From: Escherichia phage moskry
Length of the DNA: 64,000 nt
Reading direction: 5' to 3' (one strand)
Sequence record: MN850651.1
This document shows positions 11,951 to 55,416 of the stretch, piece by piece. The notes below the pieces were generated by a model. It was not told where the DNA came from. It was given only the letters and a program-made list of their open reading frames with translations, and did not search any database. A program made the position numbers and the translations under genes. The first letter of the stretch is position 1. The number at the start of each line of letters is the position of its first letter.

Positions 11951-13519
11951 ATGACTACTATCAAAACTAAAGCTCAGCTCGTAGACAAATGGAAAGAACT
12001 GCTGGAAGGTGAAGGCCTGCCGGAAATCGCTAATAGCAAGCAGGCTATTATCGCTAAAATCTTCGAAAACCAGGAAAAAGATTTCGAAGTATCCCCTGAA
12101 TATAAAGACGAGAAAATCGCTCAGGCATTTGGTTCTTTCTTGACCGAAGCTGAAATTGGTGGTGACCATGGTTATAATGCTCAGAACATCGCAGCAGGTC
12201 AAACCTCTGGTGCAGTAACCCAAATTGGGCCGGCAGTTATGGGTATGGTTCGTCGTGCTATTCCTAATCTGATTGCTTTTGATATTTGTGGTGTTCAGCC
12301 TATGAACAGCCCGACCGGTCAGGTATTTGCTCTCCGTGCAGTATATGGTAAAGACCCTATCGCTGCTGGCGCTAAAGAAGCTTTCCATCCGATGTATGCC
12401 CCAGACGCGATGTTCTCTGGTCAGGGTGCTGCTAAGAAATTCCCAGCTCTGGCTGCTGACACTACTACTGTTGTAGGTGATATCTATACTCACTTCTTCC
12501 AAGAAACTGGTACCGTATATCTGCAAGCTTCTGCTATCGTAACACTTGATTCTAGTGCAACTGATGCAGCTAAATTAGATGCAGAAGTTAAGAAACAAAT
12601 GGAAGCTGGTGCACTGGTAGAAATCGCTGAAGGTATGGCTACTTCTATCGCTGAACTTCAGGAAGGTTTCAACGGTTCTACCGATAACCCATGGAATGAA
12701 ATGGGCTTCCGTATCGATAAACAAGTTATCGAAGCTAAATCTCGTCAGCTGAAAGCTGCTTACTCTATCGAATTAGCACAAGACCTCCGTGCAGTACACG
12801 GTATGGATGCTGATGCTGAACTGAGCGGTATTCTGGCTACAGAAATTATGCTAGAAATCAACCGTGAAGTTGTTGATTGGATTAACTACTCTGCACAGGT
12901 TGGTAAATCTGGTATGACCCTGACTCCGGGTTCTAAAGCTGGCGTATTTGACTTCCAGGACCCGATTGATATCCGTGGTGCTCGTTGGGCCGGTGAAAGC
13001 TTTAAATCTCTGTTGTTCCAGATTGATAAAGAAGCAGTTGAAATTGCTCGTCAAACCGGTCGTGGTGAAGGTAACTTCATTATCGCTTCCCGTAACGTAG
13101 TTAACGTACTGGCTTCAGTTGATACTGGTATTTCTTACGCTGCGCAGGGTCTGGCTTCTGGTTTTAATACCGACACTACTAAGTCTGTATTTGCCGGTGT
13201 ACTTGGTGGTAAATACCGCGTATACATCGACCAGTATGCTAAACAGGATTACTTCACCGTTGGTTACAAAGGCGCTAACGAAATGGATGCAGGTATTTAC
13301 TATGCTCCTTACGTTGCACTTACCCCGCTGCGTGGTTCCGATCCTAAGAACTTCCAGCCGGTAATGGGCTTCAAAACTCGTTACGGTATCGGTGTTAACC
13401 CGTTTGCTGAAAGTTCCCTGCAGGCTCCAGGTGCTCGCATCCAGTCCGGTATGCCGTCTATCCTGAACAGCCTTGGTAAGAACGCTTACTTCCGCCGTGT
13501 ATATGTAAAAGGCATCTAA
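11951..13519 (+). CDS. 23: Major capsid protein gp23
   Basis: 522 aa; MTTIKTKAQLVDKWKELLEGEG...; T4 gp23 is 521 aa. Confidence 0.97.
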   Translation: MTTIKTKAQLVDKWKELLEGEGLPEIANSKQAIIAKIFENQEKDFEVSPEYKDEKIAQAFGSFLTEAEIGGDHGYNAQNIAAGQTSGAVTQIGPAVMGMVRRAIPNLIAFDICGVQPMNSPTGQVFALRAVYGKDPIAAGAKEAFHPMYAPDAMFSGQGAAKKFPALAADTTTVVGDIYTHFFQETGTVYLQASAIVTLDSSATDAAKLDAEVKKQMEAGALVEIAEGMATSIAELQEGFNGSTDNPWNEMGFRIDKQVIEAKSRQLKAAYSIELAQDLRAVHGMDADAELSGILATEIMLEINREVVDWINYSAQVGKSGMTLTPGSKAGVFDFQDPIDIRGARWAGESFKSLLFQIDKEAVEIARQTGRGEGNFIIASRNVVNVLASVDTGISYAAQGLASGFNTDTTKSVFAGVLGGKYRVYIDQYAKQDYFTVGYKGANEMDAGIYYAPYVALTPLRGSDPKNFQPVMGFKTRYGIGVNPFAESSLQAPGARIQSGMPSILNSLGKNAYFRRVYVKGI

Positions 13520-13543
13520 TCTTAATTGATTAAATCTTATTTT

Positions 13544-13561
13544 GGGAGACTTCGGTCTCCC
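13544..13561 (+). terminator. Intrinsic terminator after gene 23
   Basis: GGGAGAC-TTCG-GTCTCCC followed by ATTTTTGGTTTT. Confidence 0.8.
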
Positions 13562-13571
13562 ATTTTTGGTT

Positions 13572-13841
13572 TTATTTCTGTGCAATTTTGATGTAAGTTT
13601 TCAAAATATTTTGCCAATTAGGCATACCTTCTTGGATATATGCTGGAGAACCGTCTTTGTTTTTGAATGATGCAAGTTTATCAGTGGCCCAATAACCTTT
13701 AGCTCGAGCTTCAGAATCAACTTTCATCCATACTTTGTTGAAGGCATTACCATTAACTTTTGCACCATATTTTTCTACTAACTTAACTGCTTCAGCTTCC
13801 AGAACTTTTAAAGTATCTCGTAAGAAACGTGCTTTAGTCAT
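13572..13841 (-). CDS. Hypothetical small early protein at the position of T4 segD
   Basis: 89 aa minus-strand ORF inside the plus-strand late block; ATG preceded by GAGGAG; own early-type promoter upstream and hairpin downstream; no recognisable motif. Confidence 0.7.
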   Translation of the reverse strand: MTKARFLRDTLKVLEAEAVKLVEKYGAKVNGNAFNKVWMKVDSEARAKGYWATDKLASFKNKDGSPAYIQEGMPNWQNILKTYIKIAQK

Positions 13842-13869
13842 TTTGTTTACTCCTCTGTAGTTGATAAGT

Positions 13870-13901
13870 CTATAGTATCATATACCAAATACGTTGTAAA
13901 C
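13870..13901 (-). promoter_or_regulatory. Early-type promoter (GTTTAC-N17/18-TACTATAG) for the small gene between 23 and 24
   Basis: Minus strand reads GTTTAC aacgtatttggtatatga TACTATAG; same architecture recurs at 8 other loci. Confidence 0.6.
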
Positions 13902-13907
13902 AATCTT

Positions 13908-13915
13908 TATAAATA
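13908..13915 (+). promoter_or_regulatory. Late promoter TATAAATA upstream of gene 24
   Basis: Exact TATAAATA about 28 nt upstream of ATG. Confidence 0.7.
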
Positions 13916-13942
13916 ATCTATATCACATAAGGAAAAAATGCA

Positions 13943-15226
13943 ATGAGTAAAATCCAAAAATTATTGCGTGAATCTACAACGTCTACTAGCAACTCAATTG
14001 GTCGCCCAAATCTCGTTGCTTTGACTCGCGCTACGACTAAATTAATATATTCTGACATTGTAGCAACACAAAGAACTAATCAACCTGTTGCTGCTTTTTA
14101 TGGTATCAAATATCTTAACCCAGATAACGAATTCACATTTAAAACTGGCGCTACTTATGCGGGTGAAGCTGGATACGTAGACCGAGAAAAAATTACTGAG
14201 CTCACAGAAGAATCAAAAGTCACACTAAATAAAGGCGATTTTTTCAAATATAATAATATCGTCTATAAAGTGTTAGAAGATACACCATTTGCAGATATTC
14301 AAGAAAGTGATCTAGAATTAGCTCTTCAGATTGCAGTCGTTCATTTAAAGGTACGGTTATTTTCAGATGCAGCGGTAACAAGCAAATTTGAAAGCTCTGA
14401 TAGCGAAATTTCTGATGCAAGATTCCAGATTAATAAATGGCAAACTTCAGTCAAATCTCGTAAACTTAAAACTGGTCTCACGGTTGAATTAGCGCAAGAT
14501 TTGGAAGCGAATGGATTTGATGCCCCTAACTTCTTAGAAGATTTGCTTGCTACTGAAATGGCAGATGAAATTAATAAAGATATTCTTCAGTCTTTAATTA
14601 CTGTATCGAAACGTTATAAAGTTACTGGAATTACTGACACTGGATTTATTGACTTGAGCTATGCGTCAGCTCCAGAAGCAGGTCGTTCATTATATCGAAT
14701 GGTGTGTGAAATGGTATCACACATTCAAAAAGAGACAACTTATACTGCAACGTTTTGTGTAGCCTCAGCTCGTGCAGCTGCTATTCTTGCTGCTTCTGGT
14801 TGGTTAAAACATAAGCCAGAAGATGACAAGTATCTTTCACAAAATGCTTATGGATTCTTGGCAAATGGATTACCTCTTTACTGCGATACCAACAGCCCGT
14901 TAGATTATGTTATTGTGGGTGTTGTAGAAAATCTCGGCGAAAAAGAAATTGTAGGGTCCATCTTTTATGCTCCATACACTGAAGGAGTAGATTTAGATGA
15001 CCCAGAACATGTCGGTGCTTTTAAAGTTGTAGTTGATCCAGAAAGCTTGCAACCGTCTATCGGATTATTGGTTAGATATGCTTTATCAGCAAATCCTTAC
15101 ACAGTAGCAAAAGACGAAAAAGAAGCGAGAATAATTGATGGTGGGGACATGGATAAAATGGCAGGACGTTCAGACTTGTCTGTTTTACTCGGTGTTAAAT
15201 TGCCTAAAATTATTATAGATGAATAA
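13943..15226 (+). CDS. 24: Capsid vertex protein gp24
   Basis: 427 aa, same length as T4 gp24; gp23-like fold region. Confidence 0.95.
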   Translation: MSKIQKLLRESTTSTSNSIGRPNLVALTRATTKLIYSDIVATQRTNQPVAAFYGIKYLNPDNEFTFKTGATYAGEAGYVDREKITELTEESKVTLNKGDFFKYNNIVYKVLEDTPFADIQESDLELALQIAVVHLKVRLFSDAAVTSKFESSDSEISDARFQINKWQTSVKSRKLKTGLTVELAQDLEANGFDAPNFLEDLLATEMADEINKDILQSLITVSKRYKVTGITDTGFIDLSYASAPEAGRSLYRMVCEMVSHIQKETTYTATFCVASARAAAILAASGWLKHKPEDDKYLSQNAYGFLANGLPLYCDTNSPLDYVIVGVVENLGEKEIVGSIFYAPYTEGVDLDDPEHVGAFKVVVDPESLQPSIGLLVRYALSANPYTVAKDEKEARIIDGGDMDKMAGRSDLSVLLGVKLPKIIIDE

Positions 15227-15261: not shown

Positions 15262-16260
15262 TTATGATACTAATTCAATCCATGCAGGACGCAGAACATC
15301 TTGCACCATTCTGACTAATTCTTTCTTAACAAGATTCGGATTATCAGATGATGTTAATACAATACCTTCACGAGAAGTTTCTTCCAGAATATCTTGAACA
15401 GTCAATCCCATCACTTTGCCAAAATCTTTTGGCGTTACAGTCCCAATCTTAGAAATCACATTATTAATACGATTTAATGTAACATAACAAGCTAGAACAT
15501 CAAGCAAGTTTTTGTCAGTTTCGGTTAATGGAACCTGAGTTTTAATAGGCTTATCAGACTTTTTCTTTTCACTGAATTTAGAGTTCTTGCACTTAATAGC
15601 TACACGAGTACCGTTTGGCAGCCATTTAGGGAAACAGGGCTTCAGAACATAACCTTCTGCCGTATTATCGCCAATAACATTAGCATCAAATACGCAATTA
15701 TTTGCTTCGACAAGGTCTTCCGATGCCGTGGCGTTATAAGCGGCTAAGACGGAATCAAGGTCATTTGGAATCATGATAAGAGAATCAAATGTTCCACGTC
15801 CAAGCATTGGTGCCATTTTAAAACCGAATTCATTACAGAAATCTTGCATTTCGTAATCGGTCAAATACGTATTATCACCACTTTCTGTATTGATAAGGAT
15901 ATCGAACACGTAAAAATCTTTTTCACCGTAGTCAACACCTTTCTGGATTCCACCACCAGCGAATTCACCGAATACTTGATATGATACGGCTCGAGCTGTG
16001 TACATGAATTCCTGAACGGCTTTAATAGCTTTATCATACTTCTTGAGTATGATTTCATAACCATAAAAATCTTCTGCTGGAAGAATAGGGCCTGTGCGCT
16101 TGGCGCATGTGACGTTGTCACGTTCAATTATTAACGAGAAGTTAGTCCCATGGATTTTCTCACGTGCTACCCAAACACCAGTAGTCAAACCATTAGTGTA
16201 GAGTTTTTCAATAAACTTAGAGTTGTAGTGGTTTTCAAGACTGCTGTATTTCTTAAACAT
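15262..16260 (-). CDS. rnlB: RNA ligase 2 (Rnl2)
   Basis: 332 aa; [20 protein letters not shown] and KIHGTNFS ligase motif I; T4 RnlB 334 aa. Confidence 0.93.
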
Positions 16261-16379: not shown

Positions 16380-16631
16380 TTAGAACTTGATTTCTATCCA
16401 ATGACCATCACGCTGGTCGTGATTAATTTTATACTGAAAGCCATTATCACGTAACCACTGCCCGACTTGCTCAGTGATAGTTAAATCATTCTTTGACGGA
16501 TAGTATGTAAATTGTGTCTGGCCTTTATCAGCGGCTTTCTCTGCCATCACAGAGAAGTTAGTAATAAAATCACTCAACAAATTAGCTTTAGTGGCCAGAG
16601 CCCTTTCTCTTAATTCCTGTGCAAAACTCAT
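16380..16631 (-). CDS. Hypothetical protein (T4 24.2/24.3 region)
   Basis: 83 aa ORF with ATG start, between rnlB and hoc as in T4. Confidence 0.7.
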   Translation of the reverse strand: MSFAQELRERALATKANLLSDFITNFSVMAEKAADKGQTQFTYYPSKNDLTITEQVGQWLRDNGFQYKINHDQRDGHWIEIKF

Positions 16632-16822
16632 TTCTTCACCTTTTTGTTAATCAAACGTTTACGGTATACAACTTTTTCTTTTGCTTTAAACTTTGACCGA
16701 GCTGTCTCGGCTTTAGTCCATAGTAATCCAACTTCTTTAGGTTGTAAACCGATTTTTTGAGCAATTTCTACGAATGAAAATCCCGCCTCATGTAATGTAT
16801 AAACTTCAACTTCAGCTCTCAT
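16628..16822 (-). CDS. Small putative HTH DNA-binding protein (T4 24.3 region)
   Basis: Track ORF begins with TTG at 16828; first ATG two codons in (16822); HTH-like EAGFSFVEIAQKIGL; basic C-terminus. Confidence 0.6.
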   Translation of the reverse strand: MRAEVEVYTLHEAGFSFVEIAQKIGLQPKEVGLLWTKAETARSKFKAKEKVVYRKRLINKKVKK

Positions 16823-16901
16823 AATCAATCCCGTATTATTTGGTTTGTGCCATTATATACATCAATCTCAAGATGTGTTTTGTATGCTTTAAAAACGAAG
16901 A

Positions 16902-16921: not shown

Positions 16922-18340
16922 TTATGGATATGTATAGATGATACCAGTTTCCAAAGCAGTTTTATGGATGATGTATCCATTACGTGATTCTTGAACATCA
17001 ACTTCTGGATAATCTTTCATCATCTTCTGAAGAGTGTAACGATGCAGGTAGTATTTACTATCTGGATCTTCAGTTTTCCAATCTTTACCTTCTTCAGTCA
17101 TTTTTTGGATTTCATCCATAACCCACCATCCGCACCAGATGTAAGCTGAAGTACGATGTGGAAGAGGATGAACATAAGGTAATTCACCTTCTGGTTCTGG
17201 AGCAACTTTATCGGTTACCTGAACTTGACCTTCTGCTGTAATAGTTTTGCTATCGTAATCAGTTGCAGTAATAGTTGCAGTAACTTCAATAGTTTGACTT
17301 CCAATAGATGAGGTATCAACGGTATATACATTAGTTGACCCTTCTACAGGAGAAGAATCTTTCTTCCATGAATACTCAATTTGCGCTTCTTCTGGAGCAT
17401 CAGTGACATTAGCGGTAAATGTAGCCGAAGCATCTTGCTGAACGTTAATAGAAGGAGGAGTCAATGTAACCCGTGGATTCATTGTCTTCTTATTAACCGT
17501 TAATGATACTTCATTCGAAGTAACTTCCTTTGCATCATAATCTGTCGCGGTTACTTGGGCTACACATTTAATTCTTTTTACCCCGCTTGTAGTCGGAGTA
17601 TAGCTAAATGTAGAGTTAGTTTCTCCACCAACCTGTGAATCATCTACATACCACTGATACGTAGCAGACGCTCCAACCGGTTGAGAAGCTAAGGCAGCAG
17701 TAAATTGAACTGGGGTTCCAATTACTCCGGCTGAAGGACTATTGGGAGTTACTGCCAACGTAGTTGTCTGTGTCTTTTTATTAACAGTCAGTGACACTTC
17801 ATTAGAAGTAACGCTTAGTGCGTCATAATCTGTTGCGGTTACTTGAGCCACACACTTAATTCTTTTTACCCCGCTTTCGGCAGGAGTGTAATTGAACGTA
17901 GCGTTAGTTGCTTCACCAACAGGAGAATCATCTACATACCATTGATAAGTAGCGTTTGCGCCTGATGGCTGCGAAGCTAAAGCGGCAGTAAATTGAATAG
18001 CTGTTCCTATTACTCCAGCGTCAGGGCTATTAGGAGTTACAGCTAAGGTAGTCGTTTGTGTCTTGTTTTGAACTGTGATAGTTGTAGTAGCTTCTGCTGT
18101 TTCAGCTTCAGCTTCTGGAACTGTATTTGTTGCAACTACTTTAATAGTCTTTTGACCGGCAGGTCCTTTTAGTACATAACTAAAAGTTGCTTCAGCTCCA
18201 TCTTGTGGAACATCATCCACAGACCAAGCATATGTAATAGGTCCATCTCCAGTTTGACCACTGGGTGTAGCAGTAAACTGCTTAGTCTCATCTATAACTC
18301 CAGTAGGTGTTTTAGGAGTTATATCAACTGTAAAAGCCAT
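16922..18340 (-). CDS. hoc: Hoc highly immunogenic outer capsid protein, 4 Ig-like domains
   Basis: 472 aa; Ig-like repeat units; T4 Hoc is 376 aa (3 Ig domains + capsid-binding domain); here one extra 96-aa domain. Confidence 0.9.
   Translation of the reverse strand: MAFTVDITPKTPTGVIDETKQFTATPSGQTGDGPITYAWSVDDVPQDGAEATFSYVLKGPAGQKTIKVVATNTVPEAEAETAEATTTITVQNKTQTTTLAVTPNSPDAGVIGTAIQFTAALASQPSGANATYQWYVDDSPVGEATNATFNYTPAESGVKRIKCVAQVTATDYDALSVTSNEVSLTVNKKTQTTTLAVTPNSPSAGVIGTPVQFTAALASQPVGASATYQWYVDDSQVGGETNSTFSYTPTTSGVKRIKCVAQVTATDYDAKEVTSNEVSLTVNKKTMNPRVTLTPPSINVQQDASATFTANVTDAPEEAQIEYSWKKDSSPVEGSTNVYTVDTSSIGSQTIEVTATITATDYDSKTITAEGQVQVTDKVAPEPEGELPYVHPLPHRTSAYIWCGWWVMDEIQKMTEEGKDWKTEDPDSKYYLHRYTLQKMMKDYPEVDVQESRNGYIIHKTALETGIIYTYP
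17489..18064 (-). repeat. Tandem direct duplication (2 x approx. 288 bp) inside hoc, each encoding one Ig-like domain
   Basis: Protein residues approx. 93-188 and 189-284 are near-identical (KTQTTTLAVTPNSP...VSLTVNK); corresponding DNA segments clearly similar by eye. Confidence 0.85.
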
Positions 18341-29492: not shown

Positions 29493-29524
29493 TGATAGTA
29501 TCACACATCCATGTGTTTGTAAAC
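29493..29524 (-). promoter_or_regulatory. Early-type promoter upstream of the alt.-1-like gene
   Basis: GTTTAC-N18-TACTATC on minus strand, overlapping the 3' end of alt. Confidence 0.55.
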
Positions 29525-36395: not shown

Positions 36396-36426
36396 CTATA
36401 ATAACATAACCTGTACCAAAGTAAAC
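36396..36426 (-). promoter_or_regulatory. Early-type promoter upstream of the 121-aa hypothetical gene
   Basis: GTTTAC-N17-TATTATAG on minus strand. Confidence 0.55.
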
Positions 36427-36837: not shown

Positions 36838-36869
36838 TCTATAGTAACACCATCCTACAGGATAGTAAA
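36838..36869 (-). promoter_or_regulatory. Early-type promoter upstream of the 122-aa hypothetical gene
   Basis: GTTTAC-N18-TACTATAG on minus strand. Confidence 0.6.
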
Positions 36870-36907
36870 CATCTTTTTTAAACTTTTTCTGCCCTAAACG
36901 CACAAAA

Positions 36908-40425: not shown

Positions 40426-40457
40426 TTATAGTATCACAACTCTACCATGTTGTAAAC
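40426..40457 (-). promoter_or_regulatory. Early-type promoter upstream of the 78-aa cd.x-like gene
   Basis: GTTTAC-N18-TACTATAA on minus strand. Confidence 0.55.
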
Positions 40458-42525: not shown

Positions 42526-42582
42526 TTAGATTTCCTCAATTATCCATAGGAGCATTATACTCTGCTCCCGAGAGTTTGTAAA

Positions 42583-42807
42583 CTATTTTACTAAAGATTC
42601 AATATACTCATGAAGAGCTTTAGTCGCTACTGCCCACTTATTCTGATATTCATTTTTCAGATTAGCACGAGACTGAACTAACAAGCGGTCATTAGTCGGA
42701 GGCAAAGATTCTAATCGTTGAATCTGGCGTCCATAAATCATAGCCGCCATTTCAGATTCATAGATAAGCCCTTTAATGTATTCATGCTGTTCTTTAGTCA
42801 TTGGCAT
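42583..42807 (-). CDS. Hypothetical protein
   Basis: 74 aa ORF. Confidence 0.65.
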   Translation of the reverse strand: MPMTKEQHEYIKGLIYESEMAAMIYGRQIQRLESLPPTNDRLLVQSRANLKNEYQNKWAVATKALHEYIESLVK

Positions 42808-43956: not shown

Positions 43957-43988
43957 CCATAGTATCACCATCCTTGGTGTTTGTAAAC
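43957..43988 (-). promoter_or_regulatory. Early-type promoter upstream of alc
   Basis: GTTTAC-N18-TACTATGG on minus strand between rnlA and alc. Confidence 0.6.
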
Positions 43989-45141: not shown

Positions 45142-45171
45142 ATTGTACCACAATCCTTGTGGTATGTAAAC
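45142..45171 (-). promoter_or_regulatory. Early-type promoter upstream of rnlA with a hairpin in the spacer
   Basis: GTTTAC-N18-TACAAT on minus strand; spacer contains inverted repeat TACCACA...TGTGGTA. Confidence 0.55.
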
Positions 45172-52090: not shown

Positions 52091-52121
52091 CTATAGTATC
52101 ATGTTTAAAGGAAAAGTAAAC
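52091..52121 (-). promoter_or_regulatory. Early-type promoter downstream of gene 32, driving the frd.3-frd-td operon
   Basis: GTTTAC-N17-TACTATAG on minus strand. Confidence 0.6.
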
Positions 52122-55384: not shown

Positions 55385-55416
55385 CTATAGTAACACACTC
55401 ATTTGAAAGCGTAAAC
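55385..55416 (-). promoter_or_regulatory. Early-type promoter upstream of rnh
   Basis: GTTTAC-N18-TACTATAG on minus strand in the rnh/34 divergent intergenic region. Confidence 0.6.

Follow-up and report, generated by a model that had tools for sequence, protein, structure and literature searches.

A putative early-type accessory cassette on the opposite strand between capsid genes 23 and 24 of an RB69-like phage

Introduction

Morons and other early accessory genes of T-even phages encode small early proteins that are not essential and serve to modify the host or to overcome its defences. In the phage genome studied here, a small open reading frame (ORF) lies on the minus strand between two late genes of the plus strand, those of the major capsid protein (gene 23) and the capsid vertex protein (gene 24). 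Such a location raises three questions: whether the ORF is a real gene, whether it has transcription signals of its own, and what its product could do for the phage. An earlier note on this DNA had proposed a moron-like independent transcription unit in a context typical of host-takeover or anti-defence functions. Here, we analyse the signals, conservation, distribution and predicted structure of this unit and weigh possible explanations for its presence in the capsid block.

Results

Gene layout of the locus

The window (the whole stretch of 64,000 nucleotides under analysis) aligns as a Mosigvirus genome, RB69-like and of the T4 type; its region 13400–14100 matched more than 100 genomes of Mosigvirus (RB69-like Tevenvirinae) at an identity of at least 99%. 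The minus-strand ORF of 89 codons that the earlier note placed between genes 23 and 24 is indeed present, with an ATG at 13841–13839 and a stop codon after codon 89 (Table 1). Public records show the same order, that is, gene 23, a 270-nt hypothetical gene on the opposite strand, gene 24 and rnlB. The statement that T4 carries segD in the same gap was also confirmed; segD is encoded there on the minus strand.

Two observations concern the neighbouring head genes. Gene 24 is present in one copy in the window, whereas the JS98-type phages have two; in JS98 (L003) and in the contigs L017, L018 and L021 these tandem copies (24a and 24b, 426–427 aa) adjoin the small ORF. A Hoc-like head decoration gene is located at 16922–18340 on the minus strand; it encodes 472 aa with internally repeated segments and is longer than the T4 hoc gene (1131 nt in the T4 record L020).

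Table 1. Features of the region between genes 23 and 24 and its flanks. Positions are those of the window.
Feature	Position	Strand	Basis or details
Gene 23 (major capsid protein), left flank	11951–13519	+	ORF listing and public annotation
GC-rich hairpin GGGAGAC-ttcg-GTCTCCC	13544–13561	both	Folding energy, terminator scan, conservation
Small 89-aa ORF	13572–13841	-	ATG at 13841–13839; 89 aa plus stop
ORF family: homologue of RB69ORF188c, phrog_6003	13572–13841	-	Profile match E 2.6e-45, dN/dS about 0.1
Shine-Dalgarno GAGGAG	13850–13855	-	8 nt upstream of ATG
T4-type early promoter	13872–13901	-	-35 GTTTACA, 17-nt spacer, TGn, -10 TACTAT
A/T-rich stretch at UP-element position	13902–13925	-	Upstream of -35; overlaps gene 24 late promoter
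Gene 24 late promoter TATAAATA	13908–13915	+	Back to back with early promoter; annotated in OL960576
Gene 24 (capsid vertex protein), right flank	13943–15226	+	ORF listing and public annotation
rnlB	15262–16260	-	ORF listing

Conservation of the ORF

The ORF product matches the profile of the phrog_6003 family over its entire length (residues 1–89 against positions 1–90 of the 90-position profile); all 21 aligned family members also hit phrog_6003. The ORF was found by tblastn in 240 phage records, in 238 of which at least 80% of its length is covered. These records comprise about 120 copies in Mosigvirus at 95–100% identity and about 120 copies in Dhakavirus (JS98-like phages) at 33–37% identity. 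In JS98 and related contigs the ORF again lies on the opposite strand between genes 23 and 24. Pairwise dN/dS ratios, taken from pairs in which dS is not saturated, range from 0.08 to 0.16, and the protein length is conserved at 83–93 aa. The conserved core of the alignments includes K3, F6, N30-G31-N32, N35 and Q70, all of which occur in the window protein; K3, F6, G31, N32, N35 and Q70 are invariant in the family. These alignments show that the ORF truly encodes a protein and that purifying selection acts on it.

The earlier note had named frameshifts in close relatives as an outcome that would speak against the gene. Only two of the records contain them. The copy of phage mogra (L005, 601–869) has a 1-nt deletion in a run of five A residues, and that of phage 310Ecol104PP (P0028) is frameshifted and would yield a truncated product. 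Each of these frameshifts may be genuine or may stem from an error in sequencing a homopolymer; the two copies are evidence, at the most, that loss of the gene is possible.

The family is small and confined to phages: a phmmer search over 1.84 billion representatives, together with word-indexed sequence and profile searches, yielded about 23 clusters among 5.8 billion proteins. Three further candidates were rejected, namely a 2191-aa adhesin-like repeat protein (P0009) and a protein with cytochrome b5 repeats (P0011), the scores of which are sums over repeats, and a protein from a chimeric contig (P0030). One 90-aa family member (P0006; ena:ERZ27245996:k123_278436) bears the JGI name "NADPH-dependent curcumin reductase CurA", an evident misannotation.

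Early promoter and ribosome-binding site

The promoter was originally described as GTTTAC followed after 18 nt by a second sequence element. On the minus strand, GTTTAC is found at 13901–13896 and, 18 nt downstream, TACTATAG at 13877–13870. In the sigma-70 reading the same site consists of TTTACA (13900–13895), a 17-nt spacer that ends in TGa (13880–13878), and TACTAT (13877–13872); a generic promoter scan also detected it, with 9 of 12 matches and the TG. T4-type early promoters are composed of an UP element, a -35 element, TGn and a -10 element (PMC1524935, PMC2988021). The site shows all of these parts, with GTTTAC at -35, a spacer of about 17 nt, TGn, a TAnnAT hexamer, an upstream A/T-rich region and a position on the early strand. 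The A/T-rich stretch, which could function as an UP element, is supplied by the gene 24 late promoter, which lies 7 bp from the -35 element. The late-promoter motif itself occurs at 18 sites in the window versus 7.4 expected. Transcription from the early promoter would start near 13865, upstream of the GAGGAG ribosome-binding site, which is present at 13855–13850 as proposed.

The motif GTTTAC-N17-19-TAYWAT occurs at 11 sites in the 64 kb, all of them on the minus strand, versus 0.27 expected and a maximum of two in any of 100 shuffled sequences. Given this enrichment, which is 40-fold and restricted to the minus strand, the ORF promoter is a regular member of the early-promoter class of this phage. 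Other sites of the class are nearly identical to it, for example GTTTACAAACACATGGATGTGTGATACTAT. The ten other sites are located at 16720–16749, 29495–29524, 36398–36426, 36841–36870, 40428–40457, 42554–42583, 43959–43988, 45142–45171, 52093–52121 and 55387–55416, and, taken together, the eleven mark the predicted starts of early transcription along the window. The match at 16720–16749 falls within a 66-aa ORF (16628–16828).

The promoter is also conserved between genera. Upstream of the JS98 ORF we found tatttataaaagttGTTTACA, a 17-nt spacer ending in TGt, TACTAT and then, before the ATG, a GAGGAG identical to that of the window. In L017, L019, L007 and L015 the -35 element (with one base different in L017) and the -10 hexamer are kept and the spacer differs; the TG before the -10 hexamer is kept in L017, L019 and L015 but not in L007. 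Hexamers retained across genera around a diverged spacer are the footprint of a working promoter. The proposed early-type promoter thus stands on both its membership in an enriched motif class and the retention of its hexamers, and the ORF is probably expressed early. A literature search found no Mosigvirus transcriptome.

The hairpin downstream of the ORF

The hairpin between gene 23 and the ORF has a predicted free energy of -13.5 kcal/mol on the minus strand and -16.8 kcal/mol on the plus strand (z about -4.6; none of 200 shuffled sequences folds as well). It had been taken for a terminator shared by the two convergent units. This is only partly borne out. The hairpin is stable on both strands, but the stem is followed by a U-tract, TTTTTGGTTTT, only on the plus strand, in the direction of gene 23; on the ORF strand the tail reads AAAAUAAGAUUU and contains no U-tract. 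Both our own scan and TransTerm (Nolan et al. 2006) called a terminator on the plus strand only, so that the features of a Rho-independent terminator are present for gene 23 and not for the ORF transcript. The element can be read as the intrinsic terminator of gene 23 and, for the ORF transcript, as a 3' stem-loop without a U-tract, which makes the 3' end of the ORF unit uncertain. The hairpin is retained in JS98, where the same hairpin follows the ORF stop codon, in L017 and L019, and in T4-like phages, even where the gap is empty. Rfam contained no family matching 13300–14100.

Distribution and exchange of the cassette

About 450 Tequatrovirus records align to T4 at 95–99% identity but lack about 730 nt at the gap between genes 23 and 24, whereas segD is found in only 53 records and thus represents a minority state. 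The empty Tequatrovirus gap is about 80 nt long; in Yersinia phage fPS-90 (L024, 313–395), the late promoter and the hairpin are its sole contents, and a GTTTACA promoter is absent. Since the early promoter is missing from the empty-gap phages, it comes and goes with the cargo, and the notion that it belongs permanently to the capsid block as a cis element was rejected. Nor does the T4-type life cycle depend on the cargo, which most Tequatroviruses do without.

Between JS98 and the metagenomic phage L017, gp23 is 92% and gp24 94% identical, whereas the small ORFs are 29.5% identical; the L017 ORF is 61% identical to that of the window, with 83% (gp23) and 71% (gp24) in the flanks. At the nucleotide level, the identity of JS98 and L017 falls from 80–98% to 44–60% between the -35 element and the hairpin. 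This contrast among JS98, L017 and the window indicates that the cassette, promoter included, has been exchanged between lineages.

Outside the T4-like context, homologues were found in long co-directional arrays of small genes in large myophages (ABPH49, L006 and L022). In a siphophage-like contig (L023, 5001–5255), an 84-aa member is directly preceded by a gpJ-type tail-tip gene and followed by replication genes of the opposite orientation; by gene order, this is a classic moron position far from any T4-like context. In another unrelated phage (L010), the homologue follows its own consensus promoter, TTGACA-N17-TATAAT.

The unit therefore combines the features by which morons are recognized: its own promoter, a 3' structure, a location between conserved genes, and presence or absence in relatives. 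The earlier reading as a moron-like unit is supported by its absence, together with the promoter, from most Tequatroviruses, by its exchange between lineages, and by its occurrence in accessory arrays of unrelated phages. It is very probable that the ORF and its signals constitute a real, early-type, dispensable accessory cassette.

segD in T4 and Dhakaviruses

Insertions have recurred in the gap between genes 23 and 24, for which four states were found: empty, with the ORF, with segD, or with both genes in tandem. The ORF occurs without any segD in all of the roughly 120 Mosigvirus records and in most Dhakavirus records. In IME08-type Dhakaviruses (L012, 4001–4942; also L015), a SegD orthologue of 223 aa, 56% identical to T4 SegD, begins 3 nt after the ORF stop codon and ends before the same hairpin; this tandem form was found in about 38 records. 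The position of segD between the ORF stop and the hairpin implies that the two genes can share one unit, and their tandem occurrence in some Dhakaviruses implies that they are not alternatives by descent.

In T4, segD is preceded by tatttataaagttaTTTACA-N17-(TGa)TATTAT directly after the gene 24 late promoter and is followed by the hairpin GGGAACC-cgaa-GGTTCCC. The T4 site, TTTACA-N17-TGaTATTAT, lies within 7233–7300 of L020 (NC_000866) on the minus strand, at a position homologous to that of the window promoter. A 2010 review stated that no segD-specific promoter was found in T4 and expected very low expression, whereas in a 2022 T4 omics study segD is classed as early RNA and middle protein, and the protein was detected (PMC9697503, supplements). 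Our comparison suggests that T4 segD has its own sigma-70-type promoter. By analogy, the early RNA class of T4 segD gives indirect support to the notion that promoters at this position fire early; since the review reported no segD promoter, this analogy rests on our reading of the sequence and on the omics class.

Properties and predicted fold of the protein

The window protein is basic (pI 9.8) and contains no cysteine. Cysteine is missing from the family as a whole, 21 of 22 members have a pI of 9.2–9.9, and about 11% of the residues are aromatic. The AlphaFold2 model of the window protein (pLDDT 94.4, pTM 0.80) predicts an alpha-alpha-beta-hairpin-alpha fold, with helices at 3–25 and 31–48, a beta-hairpin at 52–70 and a helix at 76–88. 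A JS98-type member that is 35% identical has the same predicted topology (pLDDT 93.6). In the model, the conserved N30-G31-N32 would be placed in the loop that joins helices 1 and 2, N35 near the start of helix 2, and Q70 at the end of the hairpin.

According to the earlier note, the protein is not an endonuclease by motif and has no recognizable domain. Both statements are borne out: Pfam, NCBIfam and PADLOC gave no significant domain in the ORF, and a GIY-YIG motif or domain is absent as judged from Pfam, NCBIfam and inspection of the sequence. A match to Pfam DUF4859 (17.4 bits, E 0.0043) was rejected, as it is below the gathering threshold of 22.6 bits and was seen in only three of 21 members, which are near-identical to each other. 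The remote-homology and structure-prediction check that the note had recommended produced a confident model, with no fold match in the PDB and a match only to the same family in BFVD. In the Foldseek search of the PDB nothing was found at E <= 0.001 (best E 0.39), and the PDB sequence profile search gave nothing below E 0.66; the sole BFVD match is an 88-aa protein of the same family that is 32% identical. No likeness in sequence or fold to known anti-defence or host-takeover proteins was detected in PADLOC, the PDB and BFVD.

Discussion

Possible function of the cassette

We propose that the locus carries a self-contained early cassette, or moron, inserted on the minus (early) strand between the late genes 23 and 24. 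The host sigma-70 RNA polymerase would start at the UP/-35/TGn/-10 promoter (13872–13901) right after infection, and translation from a leader of about 25 nt with GAGGAG would yield a soluble, basic alpha/beta protein of 89 residues. The transcript could be capped or partly terminated by the hairpin at 13544–13561. Early in infection, the protein would then bind a macromolecule of the host or of its defences and act in a stoichiometric manner. The early-type promoter, the small size and solubility of the protein, the purifying selection within each allele, the exchange of divergent alleles and the patchy, accessory-gene distribution point to a non-essential early effector, and the conserved positive charge makes an acidic partner plausible, either a nucleic acid or an acidic protein. 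We consider the chances of the explanation as a whole, cassette and host- or defence-binding effector together, to be about even. Stoichiometric binding of a host or host-defence macromolecule is tentatively the most likely mode of action, though at somewhat less than even odds, and the host-takeover or anti-defence role suggested earlier is an inference from context. A further-reaching and rather doubtful speculation is that phrog_6003 represents an unrecognized fold family of early effectors, such as inhibitors or sponges directed against an E. coli defence system, with the cassette and its promoter traded among unrelated coliphages and with the two alleles of otherwise near-identical Dhakaviruses, about 30% identical, as a trace of an arms race against different host targets.

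One alternative concerns the nature of the partner. Instead of an inhibitor that binds another protein, the product could be a small basic nucleic-acid-binding protein that acts early on the host nucleoid, on transcripts or on phage DNA. Its positive charge has been kept (pI 9.2–9.9 in 21 of 22 members) though the family has diverged to about 30% identity, and the protein is rich in aromatic residues and has conserved polar positions at N30-G31-N32, N35 and Q70. On the other hand, the fold searches linked the model to no winged-helix, HhH, RHH or other nucleic-acid-binding domain, Pfam gave no match, and charge alone is weak evidence; we regard this possibility as rather unlikely. The ORF could instead persist as a neighbour of a homing gene, resident beside the insertion or target site of SegD and spread by SegD-driven gene conversion and not for its own benefit. 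The SegD orthologue directly behind the ORF and before the same hairpin in IME08-type phages, the presence of segD alone behind a similar promoter in T4, and the sharp mosaic boundaries, such as co-conversion would produce, all agree with this. It is nevertheless improbable: the ORF is under purifying selection, about 120 Mosigvirus and most Dhakavirus records keep it without segD, and the homologues of other phages have no seg gene in their vicinity.

A role within the phage, in which the protein or early antisense read-through modulates the expression or assembly of the products of genes 23 and 24, seems more improbable still. The position between these genes is kept in two genera, and the minus strand, having no U-tract, could allow read-through antisense to gene 23. 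Yet most Tequatroviruses, whose capsid genes are closely related, have neither the cargo nor the early promoter; the homologues of other phages are nowhere near capsid genes, and early timing does not suit a capsid assembly factor. Least probable, and hardly credible, is a spurious or decaying ORF that yields no functional protein. The frameshifted copies of mogra and 310Ecol104PP and the tiny size of the family, with its roughly 23 clusters among 5.8 billion proteins, could be cited in its favour; against it are a dN/dS of about 0.1, a length held at 83–93 aa, intact copies in 238 of 240 records, a confidently predicted and conserved fold, and a strong ribosome-binding site and promoter.

Prior annotation and significance

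For RB69, Nolan et al. (2006) already listed an early promoter on the minus strand (Pe:109605), a late promoter on the plus strand (Pl:109573) and a plus-strand terminator designated "23-><-RB69ORF188c". The early promoter, late promoter and terminators of the gap are likewise annotated in GenBank OL960576, and in the PhAPEC2 record the small gene is labelled a homologue of RB69ORF188c. As the RB69 promoter and terminator were predicted in 2006, the unit is not new. The literature search found no papers on RB69ORF188c or NP_861878, and no transcript, proteome or phenotype for the gene in any phage.

The ORF is a clean, well-delimited candidate for functional accessory-gene screens, as it is small and dispensable, has a confidently predicted orphan fold and an early-type promoter, and exists as two divergent alleles. 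The one screen of Mosigvirus early proteins that we found, a toxicity screen in phage AV110, covered 45 early proteins chosen by homology to T4 early proteins; the ORF, having no T4 homologue, would be left out by such a selection and should not be among the 45. The gap itself is useful for studying the movement of cassettes and homing endonucleases among T-even phages, and its comparison between phages suggests a sigma-70-type segD promoter in T4, where the review found none.

Comparison with known systems

The cassette resembles the morons and early accessory genes of T-even phages in having its own promoter, in lying between conserved genes, in being absent from close relatives, and in that the ORF is small, fast-evolving and horizontally exchanged; it differs in that its product has no sequence or fold similarity to any characterized member. 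With the T4 segD unit it shares the gap, the strand, a sigma-70-type promoter after the late promoter, and a GC-rich hairpin with a cgaa or ttcg loop. In contrast, the T4 cargo is the 223-aa GIY-YIG protein SegD, and here it is an unrelated 89-aa protein without a nuclease motif. The closest known counterpart is RB69ORF188c of the phrog_6003 family (orf173 in JS98, PhAPEC2_170, SA79RD_184), which is the same gene at the same position with the same predicted promoter and terminator; nothing of substance sets the window copy apart from it, and phage EP32B carries the gene in a form 100% identical to the window copy. Annotated since 2006, the gene conforms to what is known of accessory genes in T-even phages and does not constitute a new kind of system.
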